This document shows positions 9,623 through 57,448 of a stretch of 64,000 nucleotides of DNA, piece by piece. A program made the translations under genes and the position numbers. Position 1 is the first letter of the stretch. The number at the start of each line of letters is the position of its first letter. The DNA is from an archaeon (GTDB taxonomy: Archaea; Undinarchaeota; Undinarchaeia; Undinarchaeales; JBDRKL01): NCBI GenBank assembly GCA_043814055.1, contig JBDRKL010000004.1, positions 86,246 through 150,245 of the forward strand, written 5' to 3'. The notes under the pieces were generated by a model that saw nothing but the letters and a program-made list of their open reading frames with translations, was not told the origin of the DNA and made no database searches.

Positions 9623-9864
9623 ATGAAAGCTCCGCCTGGCCGCGGAGGTGGGCCACGTCGGGGGATGCTCGCTTCAGCACGCAGCTCGTGCTGAGGCATG
9701 CGCTGCGTGTCTCTGCATGCTGGCGCATGCAGATCACTCGATCCCCCATATTGAGAAAAACATGAAAGCACCAAACACTCCGCCTGGCCGCGGAGGATGG
9801 CGTCAGGGGCATTCGCTCCTTTCAGTCGCGAAGCCCCAATAGAGGTTTAGATGAAAGCACCAAA
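9623..9864 (-). mobile_element. Two tandem hairpin cassettes between copies of the nre start sequence
   Basis: ATGAAAGC at 9623; ATGAAAGCACCAAA at 9762 and 9851; the first two copies are followed by CTCCGC-N6-GCGGAG; homologous to inserts at 26476-26502 and 26532-26596. Confidence 0.75.
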
Positions 9865-11053
9865 TATGTGTATAGCCTGCAAAGGCGCAAGAGCCCTATG
9901 CGGCAACGAACGCTGTCCCCTACTCGCAAGAGTAAATGTCACGCCAAAGCTCACAGGCAGAATTGGAACCGACTTCTTCGGCCCGTCCCCCAGCGTTTTC
10001 GTGGGCAGAATAGGCTACCCAAATCTCTATATGGGTCCGCTCGCGACTTTTCAGGAAGAAGAAAACCCTGAGCTTATGGACACGCCGAGCTCCTGGATGA
10101 ATATGAGCTATGACAAGATTGTTGAAATGCGCTCAATGCTCATCCGCTCCAAGTCAGTGCAGAACATTTTCTCAAAATCAAGATTCATTGAAGAGAACCA
10201 GGAGCTTGCGCTCGCTGAGCGGCCGACTGATGTTGAGCTGAACTTCTCCCGCGAGCCAACCTACAAGGTCTCTTTCTCTGACGTGCATCAGCCAATGGGC
10301 CCGTCAGCTCCGCTAGAAAAAATGAAAATCACCGAGAACGTGAAGATAAACCGCAAAGTAGACCGCATAGTTTCAGACGACTTGAAAGCGAACGAGTCAG
10401 TGCTCAACCTCTACGACATTGATGTTGACGTTTACAAAATCACCACAATCCTCAGCTCAGGCGCGCTCGGCCTGGAGCAAAACCAGAAGCTCGTTCCTAC
10501 AAGATGGAGCATAACCGCTACGGACGATATGGTCGCAAAGAATCTCATTGAGCAGGTCAAGGACTTCAAGAGCGTGAGTGAGTTCAACGTGTTTGAGTTT
10601 GAATACCTCAGCAACCACTTCTGCATACTCGCAATGCCTGGCAACTGGGAGTTTGAGAACTTTGAGGCCTGGGCGCCGGGCTCGTTCTGGAGCCAGGGTT
10701 TGAAGAATACTGCGATTACTGAAGAATACGAATCCTTTGAAGGCCGCAAGAAATACGCAACAGAGCAGGGTGGCGGCTACTACGCTGCGCGCCTAGGGGT
10801 TGTGGAAGGGCTCAGCGAGCTCAAGCGGCAGGCAAGAATTGTTTCGTTCAGGGAAATTTATGAAGGCTACACAGTTCCTCTTGGCGTTTGGGTAGTTAGA
10901 GAAGCTGCTCGGAACGCTATGCGCCAGCTGCCTGTGAAATTCACAACCCTAAAAGAAGCGCTTGCGCACATCAACTCAAGAATGCGAATTGACACGAGTG
11001 ATTATTTCTCAAAGAGCAGGATTCTGAGGCAGAAGCGGCTTACTGAGTATTAA
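9851..11053 (+). CDS. nreA: DNA repair protein Nre (DUF650/651)
   Basis: CIACKGARALCG...CP, SVFVGRIGYP, KLVPTRWSITATDD, C-terminal PIP box QKRLTEY. Confidence 0.92.
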   Translation: MKAPNMCIACKGARALCGNERCPLLARVNVTPKLTGRIGTDFFGPSPSVFVGRIGYPNLYMGPLATFQEEENPELMDTPSSWMNMSYDKIVEMRSMLIRSKSVQNIFSKSRFIEENQELALAERPTDVELNFSREPTYKVSFSDVHQPMGPSAPLEKMKITENVKINRKVDRIVSDDLKANESVLNLYDIDVDVYKITTILSSGALGLEQNQKLVPTRWSITATDDMVAKNLIEQVKDFKSVSEFNVFEFEYLSNHFCILAMPGNWEFENFEAWAPGSFWSQGLKNTAITEEYESFEGRKKYATEQGGGYYAARLGVVEGLSELKRQARIVSFREIYEGYTVPLGVWVVREAARNAMRQLPVKFTTLKEALAHINSRMRIDTSDYFSKSRILRQKRLTEY

Positions 11054-11409
11054 ACAAAAGGCCAAACACTGTATGAGTACATCCCAGCAATAACTATAAT
11101 CGCAGCCGCGACTATGTAATTTCCTAAAAAGTATATCACGTACGCAAGCCAGTCTGGCTTCATATTCTTCTTCAGTCTGTGCAGCTCGTACTCCTCCATC
11201 GCTGAGACCATTATGAACGCGCCGTAGGCGAGCAGGAAGAATCCAATCACGTTCGTGTAATAAAGCAGCGTACCCCCTGCAAATAGGACCATAATGCCGT
11301 TCGCTATCGCGCCCTTGTAAGTGAACTTTTCCCGCGTAGCCCAGCCGATTAGCAGAATCATTATTGCCTGGGCCATTGTTGCAACAATTGACGGCTCTAC
11401 ATACACCAT
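11050..11409 (-). CDS. Hypothetical membrane protein (about 4 TM)
   Basis: Hydrophobic 119-aa ORF. Confidence 0.65.
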   Translation of the reverse strand: MVYVEPSIVATMAQAIMILLIGWATREKFTYKGAIANGIMVLFAGGTLLYYTNVIGFFLLAYGAFIMVSAMEEYELHRLKKNMKPDWLAYVIYFLGNYIVAAAIIVIAGMYSYSVWPFV

Positions 11410-11440
11410 AAAAAAGCATATGGGAACGTCCTTTATATAA

Positions 11441-55669: not shown

Positions 55670-57307
55670 TTATCTCAACCCTTCAACATCAAACTCAAAC
55701 AACGTAACAGGATATTCTATACCAAAGTGCGACAAAACATCAGGGCTAACTTCTCCAAAAACTCCAATCACCTTGTTCCCAACGAGAACTTCCACTACCC
55801 TGCCTGGGATGAAAGTTCCATACTCGCACTCCCTGATTGAGTACTTCTTCCCAATATTGTTCAGGAACGCCTCAACATTCGCCTTTGCCTCTGAGTAGTT
55901 CGCTTCCGAATGCAAAATTCCTCCTCCAATTCTCCACACGTTCTTTGCGCCGGTCTCAAACTTGCTGTCCAGCTGAACCGTGATTCCAATTTCAAAGAGC
56001 TTCTGCGGCATTTCCGAGCTCGCGTTCTCCGAGAAGTTCTGCAAGAGCCCAGGGAGCAGTGAAGACCTGCATATCGTGTACTCAACAGTTCTTGGATTCT
56101 TAATCTCCGCGACAGGGGTTTCTGGCAAATGCGCTTTTGTGAATTCTTTCTCCTTGTTTGAAAGCACGAAATTCACTCCCTCCTGGAACCCAAGCCCAAC
56201 CATCAAAGTTCTCAGCGTGTTCGCTAACTCGTTCCTCGCGTTCGGCTTTCCAATAGTCCCAATCTCAGGAAGCCGCGGCTCAAACTTGTCATACCCGTGC
56301 CCAACTGCAATGTCCTCAACAATATCAATCGGATGCATCACGTCCATCCTGTACGCTGGCACAATCGCATCCTTGCCGTCAAACCCAACGCGCATCTTCT
56401 CAAGTGCTGCCTTTACTTCGCCCGGCTTCATGTTCAGGTCAAGCAATTTGTTAACATAATTCAAATCCAGTTTCATCCTCTGCGGGGTCAAGTCAGGGGT
56501 TGTAACAACTTTCTTATCAGGATAAATCGCCTTCACTTCATAAATCTCAGCGCCCCTGTCTGCAAGCGCAGTTGTAACCACGTTCATCATTTCCATAACT
56601 GGTTTCCACGCGGTTCCGGTAACCTCTATGAACATGTTCTCAGTGTCTTCTCGTATCCTGCCGAACTGCGCGTTCGTGTAAGGAAGAACAGCCATTGTGT
56701 TTCCTTTCGCGTCAATGTAAGCAGGGTATTCCTTCCAGTTCTCTGCGAGGTGCTTGTATTCCTGCCCCTTCGGATGTTGCTCCTCAACCTCTTTCACAGT
56801 CATTTCATCATTAAACAAAAGCGGAGTGAACTTGTAATCCGGCTTCACAGTTGTGTATTTCACAGGGAAATTAATATCCCCTAGGTGATATGTTCCCATA
56901 GCGGCTTTCTTTCGGTTTCTTCCAATTGTGAAAGTCAATTTATCCTGGAGTTGCATGAACCCTGCAACAGTTTCCTCAGTGAACTTGTAGCCCTTAACAA
57001 CTGCAAATGCGGCGCAGCCTCTTGTTCCCAGCACGCTCTTGTCAACGTGAACGTCATATTTTGACTTCTTTACTTCATACTCTGGCAGACCTTTCTTAAC
57101 GCCCAAAAAGCCCTGCACGCCCCGCGCGAACCCTTCAATTGAGTACATGTCCGGCCTGTCAGGCGTAATGTCAAACGATACAGTTTCCTCGTCAAGCCCT
57201 TCAAGTGTAAAGCCCATCATCGGCAGAACGTCAGAGTACTCACGCTTAGTGAGCGTCTTTCCTATAAGCCCTTCCAAATCTACGCGGTTGAAATTTAATA
57301 CTGCCAT
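55670..57307 (-). CDS. pheT: Phenylalanyl-tRNA synthetase beta subunit
   Basis: PDRPDMYSIEG, QLQDKL, PAYRMDVMHPIDIVEDIA, KLFEIG. Confidence 0.96.
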   Translation of the reverse strand: MAVLNFNRVDLEGLIGKTLTKREYSDVLPMMGFTLEGLDEETVSFDITPDRPDMYSIEGFARGVQGFLGVKKGLPEYEVKKSKYDVHVDKSVLGTRGCAAFAVVKGYKFTEETVAGFMQLQDKLTFTIGRNRKKAAMGTYHLGDINFPVKYTTVKPDYKFTPLLFNDEMTVKEVEEQHPKGQEYKHLAENWKEYPAYIDAKGNTMAVLPYTNAQFGRIREDTENMFIEVTGTAWKPVMEMMNVVTTALADRGAEIYEVKAIYPDKKVVTTPDLTPQRMKLDLNYVNKLLDLNMKPGEVKAALEKMRVGFDGKDAIVPAYRMDVMHPIDIVEDIAVGHGYDKFEPRLPEIGTIGKPNARNELANTLRTLMVGLGFQEGVNFVLSNKEKEFTKAHLPETPVAEIKNPRTVEYTICRSSLLPGLLQNFSENASSEMPQKLFEIGITVQLDSKFETGAKNVWRIGGGILHSEANYSEAKANVEAFLNNIGKKYSIRECEYGTFIPGRVVEVLVGNKVIGVFGEVSPDVLSHFGIEYPVTLFEFDVEGLR

Positions 57308-57312
57308 TTTAG

Positions 57313-57448
57313 ATGTACGCTGTCTCCCTCAGCCACAGCCGCAAAATCGGCTGGCGCTTTGTGCTACGTTCGCTCACTTCGTTCGCGAAGCAGCACTCTT
57401 TAGTTATGTTATTTTGTGATATCATATGTACGCTGTCTCCCTCAGCCA
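57313..57448 (-). mobile_element. 90-bp hairpin cassette flanked by a 23-bp duplication of the pheS 3' end
   Basis: ATGTACGCTGTCTCCCTCAGCCA at 57313-57335 and 57426-57448; the insert shares 22 bp exactly (reverse complement) with 54071-54092. Confidence 0.8.

Follow-up and report, generated by a model that had tools for sequence, protein, structure and literature searches.

Hairpin cassettes that duplicate gene ends: a probable family of non-autonomous mobile elements in an order of Undinarchaeota-like archaea

Introduction

Small mobile repeats that encode no protein are known from bacteria and organelles. This paper concerns short hairpin cassettes in an archaeon of the order Undinarchaeales, first noticed in a stretch of 64,000 nucleotides (nt) of its genome (assembly GCA_043814055.1, contig JBDRKL010000004.1, positions 86,246 to 150,245), which is referred to throughout as the window. 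The cassettes are inserted at the borders of transfer RNA (tRNA) genes, C/D-box small RNA (sRNA) genes and protein genes, and duplicate 8–51 nt of their target. They probably represent a family of non-autonomous mobile elements, moving at the level of DNA, that extends across this order of Undinarchaeota-like DPANN archaea.

Several described systems share some of these properties. Repetitive extragenic palindromes (REPs) and their composites, the bacterial interspersed mosaic elements (BIMEs), which are served by REP-associated tyrosine transposases (RAYTs), also carry a G+C-rich hairpin and also lie at gene ends; their hairpin follows a short conserved foot, in place of which most cassettes have RGTA or GGCA. 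The initial annotation of the window drew this analogy, which does not extend to membership. REPs leave no target duplication, no Y1/HUH gene (Y1_Tnp domain) was found in the host genome, and neither the conserved 15-nt loop nor the second hairpin of the cassettes has a counterpart in REPs. Bacterial and archaeal MITEs (miniature inverted-repeat transposable elements) are likewise non-autonomous, multi-copy and lineage-specific small insertions with target duplications. In contrast, the cassettes have no terminal inverted repeats, their duplications vary in length rather than being fixed, and no cognate transposase was found in the host genome, which is 82% complete.

Cas1 integrates casposons and CRISPR spacers beside tRNA genes or at protein-gene 3' ends, and the target is duplicated, as it is around the cassettes. 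Their duplication has a fixed length of about 14–15 bp, whereas the cassettes are 100 times smaller, have variable duplications and occur in a genome in which Cas1 was not found. Mycobacterial interspersed repetitive units (MIRUs) and repeats of that type lie at the stop/start junctions of operons, and one cassette of the window is inserted exactly at such a junction between the tightly coupled genes pheS and pheT. Unlike these repeats, the cassettes are based on hairpins and also target tRNA and sRNA genes, and no small open reading frame (ORF) organisation was apparent in them. The likeness to the double-hairpin elements of fungal mitochondrial DNA, reportedly described by Paquin, Laforest and Lang in 2000, and to mitochondrial G+C clusters is one of kind only, and common descent is not expected; these elements belong to a different domain of life. 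They too are short, protein-less and built of two hairpins, occur in intergenic regions and introns, differ in presence between species, and have no known dedicated enzyme. To our knowledge, long variable duplications registered on a gene end, combined with a fixed orientation, have not been described for them. On present evidence, membership of the cassettes in the REP/RAYT, MITE, casposon, attachment-site scar or short interspersed nuclear element (SINE)-like classes is not supported.

Introns with the bulge-helix-bulge motif in archaeal tRNA genes form a further point of reference, and Fujishima et al. are said to have proposed in 2010 that they transpose. The same hairpin modules occur in introns and in extragenic cassettes of the genome studied here. 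The cassettes differ from introns in lying outside tRNAs, on either strand relative to the host genes, and in having target duplications. A 2026 preprint presents the arrival of archaeal tRNA introns as an open question (10.64898/2026.10.13.758758), and another account links their gain to integrase-mediated elements (PMC3293823). Full-text literature searches turned up no earlier account of elements like the cassettes from archaea, whether Undinarchaeota, DPANN or others, and no report of an element with a long, variable target duplication aligned on a functional gene end. A MITE-like C/D sRNA element described from Pyrobaculum (PMC6009581) is different from the cassettes.

Results

Filled and empty insertion sites

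The window (C4:86246-150245) belongs to a metagenome bin, G000, of 979,685 bp in 14 contigs with about 47% G+C. Its completeness of 82% limits every genome-wide enzyme negative given here, and the absence of a transposase is not proven. The closest genomes compared are 12 of the same order, every one from other families. A scan of metagenomes with PheT gave a single locus at 37% identity, and a scan of a genome collection with the CCA-adding enzyme a single locus at 52%, so that no genome of the same genus or family was available for comparison.

Comparison with relatives, which had been suggested in the initial annotation as a check, revealed empty sites at pheS/pheT, tRNA-Thr and pheT. In G000, pheS and pheT are separated by a cassette with a 23-nt repeat, and the native stop/start junction is intact behind the cassette. 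The two genes are neighbours in all 12 same-order genomes and none of these has a cassette between them: the pheS stop and the pheT start abut or overlap in nine, and a small membrane-protein gene of about 420 nt intervenes in three, all from one family (G007, G003 and G011). At G010's gene for tRNA-Thr(GGU), a 96-nt cassette is accompanied by an 18-nt duplication that starts 4 nt ahead of the tRNA and extends to base 14, whereas the sequence from promoter to tRNA is uninterrupted in the sister species G002 and G006. Another five tRNA genes harbour the same cassette family, and at each of them the gene's own sequence is duplicated over 9–17 nt (Table 1). Since each locus in G010 has duplicated its own sequence, copying between tRNA genes by way of anchor homology can be rejected there. 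Lastly, a 102-nt cassette at the pheT stop of G009 sits between the copies of a 30-nt duplication closing with the stop codon, and the site is empty in G001, a member of the same genus.

A survey of 45 tRNA genes in 30 loci (28 from relatives) recorded repeats of at least 11 nt of a gene's own end within 350 nt. Five genes had such a repeat (one each in G010, G003 and G004, two in G007), and each repeat surrounds a hairpin cassette. The tRNA-Arg genes of G003 and G007 carry the same cassette, and the duplicated tRNA end lacks CCA, as does the gene, which disfavours duplication templated by mature tRNA.

Cassette architecture

Cassettes are about 60–130 nt long and comprise an A+T-rich tail, at least one hairpin, a 7-nt linker and a terminal hairpin, module B, with a 6-bp stem and a 6-nt loop. 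The hairpins have conserved loops and freely co-varying stems. In one subfamily of G000, the hairpin before the linker is module A, in which an RGTA foot is followed by an 8-bp stem and a 15-nt loop starting GCAT(C/G)A. Cassettes of sister genera have a terminal hairpin with the stem CTCCGC and a 7-nt linker, as in module B of the window. The architecture thus extends across the order, whereas the module-A loop is peculiar to G000.

These modules had been described in the initial annotation, and all copies listed there could be located where stated. Module A is found at the five places listed there, with stems starting at 26661, 26781, 31247, 39946 and 53993 once the 4-nt foot is added to the earlier coordinates; the copy at 53993 has one mismatch, and the divergent copy claimed near 26445 is present at 26445-26475. 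Module B is confirmed at 9630, 9778, 26485, 26579, 26699, 26819, 39984, 54075 and 57336, and also occurs at 31283. The spacing between module A and the following module B, given as exactly 7 nt, holds in the aligned copies, and the motif GACCRAAGGCA-N8-GCT is indeed found upstream in three window copies. The stems, said to be Watson-Crick without G-U pairs, are nearly so, with G-U in 5 of 251 cells. One module-A copy had escaped the list, a sixth on the minus strand with its stem start at 45353. The unit also reaches further than the hairpins and takes in about 30 nt upstream of module A, with the GACCRAAGGCA-N8-GCT motif and then the A+T-rich tail. The stem is preceded by GGTA, AGTA or GGCA in most of 18 aligned copies, a word that varies.

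Six module-A copies in the window compare with a mean of 0.07 and a maximum of 1 in 30 shuffles, and the strict form occurs 16 times genome-wide against 0–1 times in shuffles (n = 5). G+C-rich hairpins of the 6/6/6 type number 10 in the window and 3.5 ± 2.1 in shuffles. The alignment of 18 copies, on which the covariance model was also built, has 87% of its cells paired, compared with 64% after column shuffling and 32–47% in controls with slid partners. Double changes affect 13 of the 14 base pairs, and both helices are kept by compensatory change. One end of a cassette is the A+T-rich tail and the other the B hairpin, and neither the alignment nor the repeat-flanked copies show any likeness between the two. 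Rfam, at its gathering threshold, reported three tRNAs in the window and no cassette match. By eye, module A has no K-turn, C/D-box or H/ACA features on either strand, and a tRNA-like fold of the cassette was rejected.

Registration and orientation at gene ends

The outer border of the duplication coincides with a functional gene end, which can be the 5' or 3' end of a tRNA, a stop codon, a start codon or a ribosome-binding site. At tRNA 5' ends it falls between 17 nt upstream and base 1, while the inner border within tRNAs lies at bases 8–15 (D-arm) or 16–20 nt from the 3' end (T-arm). In 10 of 10 stop-anchored duplicate ends examined, and in G009 as well, similarity ends exactly at the stop codon; the scan could only detect repeats with the stop in both copies but allowed extension past it.

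All 18 repeat-flanked cassettes that bear module B, as judged by eye, have B facing the truncated copy and the tail facing the intact gene, and cassette orientation is mirror-imaged at 5' and 3' gene ends. Module B lies within 0–8 nt of the duplicated copy, and module A lies at varying distances, of about 27–88 nt, from the tail border in six repeat-flanked copies. This orientation, the link to tRNA genes, the C/D-box sRNA target and the modules shared with introns are four features absent from the initial annotation. Its duplications of 8, 14, about 16, 23 and 48 bp are real, with lengths that now stand at 8, 14, 13, 13, 17, 23 and 51 nt.

Distribution of the family

A genome-wide search with the covariance model, also suggested earlier, gave 39 matches in G000 at E ≤ 1, of which 33 reach E ≤ 1.4e-4 and are taken as copies. 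The genome has 40 tRNA genes (ARAGORN, introns allowed), and 17 of the 33 copies lie within 150 nt of one, a territory that makes up about 1.6% of the genome. Flanking repeats of at least 9 nt, and up to 54 nt, surround 12 of the 33, and duplications outside the window measure 9–34 nt among the repeat-flanked copies of G000. At E ≤ 0.001, the model has no match in 40 other archaeal genomes (the 12 same-order genomes, 4 from the same phylum and 24 further ones).

Viral contigs were searched with two short words. A 15-mer spanning stem and loop matched 86 stretches, about as many as expected by chance, and none of the 80 loci examined passes the model. A 16-mer from the T-run module matched 116 stretches, including 12 occurrences in 8 loci with hairpin context, mostly tandem repeats in giant-virus bins. 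In three of these loci (L128, L140 and L164), the 16-nt motif forms tandem arrays in short hairpin context. The motif may be more widespread, or A+T-rich repeats may resemble it by chance.

Modules shared with tRNA introns

Seventeen tRNA genes of G000 have introns, of 24–193 nt, and eight of these introns match extragenic loci at E < 0.01 in blastn-short searches, with two of the matches in the window. The tRNA-Arg intron has a 58-nt extragenic match at 93%, and the tRNA-Met intron a 45-nt match at 96% directly behind tRNA-Ile. In the tRNA-Trp intron, nt 12–33 are identical to window positions 57344-57365, and nt 89–112 match 54027-54050 at 96%. Hairpin modules are thus common to introns and extragenic cassettes. 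The splicing endonuclease EndA is present in G000. Elsewhere in the genome, a tandem array of 90-nt units (C13:47427-47660) shares 27 nt at 96% with the start of the tRNA-Ala(CGC) intron.

Duplicated ends of protein genes

At several protein genes the two copies of the duplicated end can be compared in detail (Table 1). Both copies at an aCPSF1-like gene (C4:51336) encode the same 18 residues and stop, with 8 differences, all synonymous, after 34 identical bases. A gene at C4:81790-82203, which we take from a reading of its sequence, not from a family scan, to encode archease, the cofactor of tRNA ligase, carries a cassette and a duplicated end of its own (C4:82203). There the copies differ at 18 of 84 positions, namely 11, 6 and 1 at codon positions 3, 1 and 2, after 27 identical bases, and stop at the same codon. 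In the pheS copies, beyond the 23 identical bases, the two last codons are synonymous and the two stop codons differ. Comparable pairs are found at C7:36475, C7:40536, C7:14639, C10:119773 and C10:96217, with three copies at C13:26037 and one pair of gene starts at a GAPDH-like gene (C7:110503); two rows of the scan, C4:76001 and C13:47515, were set aside as tandem arrays. The duplicated ends usually adjoin a block of 15–34 identical bases, and in 6 of 10 cases no stop interrupts the frame of the second copy anywhere in the cassette. The pheT pair of G009 has one non-synonymous change in its truncated copy, as simple decay predicts. No paralogous donors of duplicate ends were found in the genome. 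Splicing as a reason for conserved ends found no support at the GAPDH-like locus, since no product there, spliced or unspliced, requires either truncated half.

Search for a mobilising enzyme

The initial annotation saw no mobilising enzyme in the window, and a scan of its 62 ORFs likewise gave no transposase, integrase or reverse transcriptase; the Hjc resolvase (29038-29502) and the Mrr-like nuclease (46638-47705) are ordinary host genes. The search for RAYT/HUH, reverse transcriptase and recombinase genes that it recommended was made genome-wide in six frames, with positive controls that gave matches in named genomes each time, and none was found. Within the 82%-complete G000 there were zero matches to RVT_1 (PF00078), Y1_Tnp (PF01797, for which controls matched in 6 of 14 genomes), Cas1 (PF01867) and Phage_integrase (PF00589, tyrosine recombinase), none over the cut-off to DDE_Tnp_1 and rve, and for TnpB only a sub-threshold zinc-ribbon match.

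Elements in the window

The cassettes of the window are listed in Table 1. Two stand in front of an Nre gene (ORF 9851-11053, with Nre_N and Nre_C domains), each preceded by 8 or 14 nt of the gene start (9623/9762/9851). The region 26250-26836 holds five stacked inserts behind a C/D-box sRNA gene, in which a variant C box, the D', C' and D boxes and a pair of 12-nt guides can be read by eye, and which Rfam does not report at the gathering threshold. The 3' end of this gene has been duplicated four times, in copies of 51, 17, 13 and 13 nt (the direct repeat 26596/26716 measures 13–14 nt). By eye, the first insert resembles the reversed start of the tRNA-Met and tRNA-Gly introns, a likeness that has no BLAST support. 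Further on, three or four similar hairpin units of about 60 nt, with no Rfam match, occupy 26870-27190, between a TATA-like box (about 26842) and the gene for the CCA-adding enzyme (27228-28589).

Three other cassettes adjoin tRNA genes: tRNA-Thr(GGU) at 31302-31419, with a 42-nt intron; the minus-strand tRNA-Gly at 40002-40182, with a 106-nt intron, a gene missed by default ARAGORN and by Rfam; and tRNA-Phe at 53877-53951, which ends 6 nt before its cassette begins. Two long minus-strand ORFs, 26178-26813 and 39380-40162, run through cassettes and are spurious or over-extended; in the latter, the FMN-reductase domain begins only at residue 89.

Table 1. Coordinates of cassettes, duplicated targets and related features (window positions unless a contig is given)
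Feature	Position	Strand	Basis
Truncated copy 1 of Nre gene start, 8 nt	9623..9630	+	direct repeat
Cassette E1: B at 9630-9647, long composite hairpin, A+T-rich tail	9631..9761	-	sequence and repeat analysis
Truncated copy 2 of Nre gene start, 14 nt	9762..9775	+	direct repeat
Cassette E2: B at 9778-9795; tail abuts intact start codon at 9851	9776..9850	-	sequence and repeat analysis
Intact C/D-box sRNA gene, repeated insertion target	26187..26250	+	boxes by eye
First insert, hairpin-forming	26251..26308	.	by eye
51-nt copy of sRNA 3' part, one mismatch	26309..26359	+	direct repeat 26200/26309
Composite cassette: small hairpins, divergent A at 26445-26475, B at 26485-26502	26360..26508	+	sequence
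17-nt copy of sRNA 3' end	26509..26525	+	direct repeat 26343/26509
Cassette ending in B (26579-26596)	26526..26596	+	sequence and repeat analysis
13-nt copy of sRNA 3' end	26597..26609	+	direct repeat
Module-A cassette: T-run tail, GACCRAAGGCA motif, A at 26661-26691, B at 26699-26716	26610..26716	+	model match C4:112870-112965, E 1.4e-16
13-nt copy of sRNA 3' end	26717..26729	+	direct repeat
Module-A cassette: A at 26781-26811, B at 26819-26836, then TATA-like promoter	26730..26836	+	model match C4:112990-113085, E 1.1e-16
Module-A cassette; B abuts base 1 of tRNA-Thr(GGU); no duplication seen	31211..31301	+	model match
Module-A cassette; B abuts CCA end of opposite-strand tRNA-Gly	39910..40001	+	model match
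Sixth module-A copy, between P-type ATPase and Na/H exchanger genes	45294..45389	-	model match C4:131539-131634, E 1.9e-8
Module-A cassette, two small hairpins, B at 54075-54092	53957..54092	+	model match
Displaced pheS last-codon copy, joined to native stop/start junction with pheT	57313..57335	-	direct repeat 57313/57426
Sister-family cassette: B at 57336-57353, 7-nt linker, second hairpin, A+T-rich tail	57336..57425	-	sequence
pheS last-codon copy now ending the pheS frame (57422-58897)	57426..57448	-	direct repeat, 23 nt
Cassette at tRNA-Ala, G010, duplication 17 nt			
Cassette at tRNA-Arg, G010, duplication 12-13 nt			
Cassette at tRNA-Tyr, G010, duplication 15 nt			
Cassette at tRNA-Lys 3' end, G010, duplication 16 nt			
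Cassette at tRNA-Pro, G002, duplication 9-10 nt			
Duplicated protein-gene ends, G000	C4:51168-51395, C4:82120-82373, C7:36386-36632, C7:40513-40676, C10:96132-96255, C13:25888-26066, C7:110503-110693		

Discussion

A probable DNA-level mobile family

The initial annotation took the cassettes for a non-autonomous mobile micro-element family, and copy number, lineage specificity and the filled and empty sites support that view. It also favoured hairpins acting at the level of DNA. The mirror symmetry at gene ends, the near-pure Watson-Crick stems and the CCA-less tRNA-Arg duplicate of G003 and G007 point the same way. Insertion might begin with two nicks on opposite strands, 8–50 nt apart, where a gene end is structured or strongly transcribed. 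A copy of the cassette, probably in the form of single-stranded DNA that folds back on itself and derives from another copy, would be joined in, and gap filling would then duplicate the target. These steps would be expected to fall to host enzymes of repair or recombination acting in trans, given that searches of the 82%-complete genome for a transposase, integrase, Cas1 or reverse transcriptase gave none. The fixed orientation may partly reflect selection on the T-run of one strand, which would end transcription behind a gene and block it in front. Gene ends bearing a cassette could later be swapped between related lineages by homologous recombination.

A number of observations weigh against this account. 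No enzyme or intermediate has been identified in the 82%-complete genome. Flanking repeats above chance length are missing from 21 of the 33 module-A copies, including six that lie directly at base 1 of a tRNA and show no duplication. Those six may be either duplication-free insertions or older copies retained as leaders, and may represent conserved leader structures, not recent insertions. The evidence of empty sites for the module-A subfamily is at the level of the order only (pheS/pheT), and the clean filled and empty pairs come from sister cassette families in other genera. All genomes are metagenome bins, known from assemblies alone. The tRNA introns, for their part, have no flanking duplication (mean 0.8 nt, n = 17), and their origin as simple insertions with target duplications is not supported.

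A further difficulty concerns the protein genes. Duplication at a simple staggered cut predicts neutral decay of the truncated copy, whereas at least eight duplicated ends keep frame and stop and differ almost only synonymously. The preferred reading, quite possible if somewhat short of probable, is that homologous recombination, crossing over in the identical block, has exchanged cassette-bearing gene ends with those of related lineages not yet sampled. Such exchange would explain why synonymous differences surround a perfectly identical block. Alternatively, both copies may be under selection, or the bin may be a mosaic of strains.

Alternative explanations

An unlikely alternative to DNA-level insertion is SINE-like retroposition, in which a structured cassette RNA would be copied from its 3' end, module B, by target-primed reverse transcription at a nick. 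Such copying should leave a precise 3' junction, a variable 5' extent and target duplications of variable length. The initial annotation had raised target-primed retrotransposition as an analogy, and the shape of the insertions fits it: module B keeps close to the duplicated target, the 5' border lies at a variable distance from module A in the six repeat-flanked copies, and duplication length varies as well. Copies also associate with tRNA genes, and some have a promoter-like box upstream. As a class membership the analogy fails, with no RVT_1 domain found in the 82%-complete genome. Moreover, the cassettes have no A-rich or simple-repeat 3' tail, their stems avoid G-U pairs, and their mirror-image orientation at 5' and 3' gene ends would require both strands to serve as RNA.

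It is also improbable that the cassettes are fixed functional structures, such as tRNA leaders, terminators, insulators or processing signals, spread by local duplication and gene conversion and not by transposition. Six copies that place module B at tRNA base 1, with a TATA-like box about 90 nt upstream, would be transcribed leaders, T-run tails directly follow tRNA or sRNA 3' ends, stems are maintained by compensatory change, and G003 and G007 share their tRNA-Arg cassette. These properties would suit a fixed structure, but such a structure would not be expected to show filled and empty sites between sister species, to occur as one family at unrelated genes with a separate target duplication at each, to be absent from 40 other genomes, or to stack in successive insertions at one sRNA end.

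The cassettes could conceivably be attachment-site scars of larger integrase-mediated elements, viral or plasmid, that brought a replacement gene end and were later lost, and this is very doubtful. Direct repeats of tRNA or protein-gene ends are described as a hallmark of archaeal integrase-mediated integration (PMC3293823), and synonymous differences between copies of protein-gene ends are as expected of a replacement end borne by an element. The repeats are separated by only 45–130 nt, however, and can be as short as 8–14 nt; the inserts belong to defined multi-copy families with fixed orientation, the same cassette occurs at many different genes, and no Phage_integrase domain was found. An artefact of assembling or binning mixed strains is least credible of all: every genome is a metagenome bin and synonymous differences between repeat copies could be strain variants, but at least seven genomes, each assembled independently (G000, G002, G003, G004, G007, G009 and G010), have this architecture in common.

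Implications

DNA-level insertion at gene ends, as preferred here, has consequences for how the host genome is understood. This very compact genome tolerates the insertions because every cassette rebuilds the gene end that it interrupts. Borders of tRNA genes emerge as hot spots of DNA transaction that seemingly need no transposase. Cassettes also mislead annotation: tRNA genes seem to start and other genes to end where they do not, and spurious long ORFs arise, one of them at 26178-26813 on the minus strand.

A broader proposal is offered only tentatively, as a possibility less likely than its opposite: that cassettes are the raw material of archaeal tRNA introns. Their insertion at structured gene ends would be driven by host enzymes and free of transposases, with the duplication registered on the functional gene border; it would sometimes fall inside a tRNA, where the splicing endonuclease removes the cassette. 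Cassettes would also travel between lineages together with a replacement gene end, in a manner like homing yet with no homing enzyme, and this would explain the synonymously diverged duplicate gene ends. The modules shared with tRNA introns make the arrival of archaeal introns directly testable and, if the proposal is true, it would provide a concrete and testable route of intron gain in archaea.

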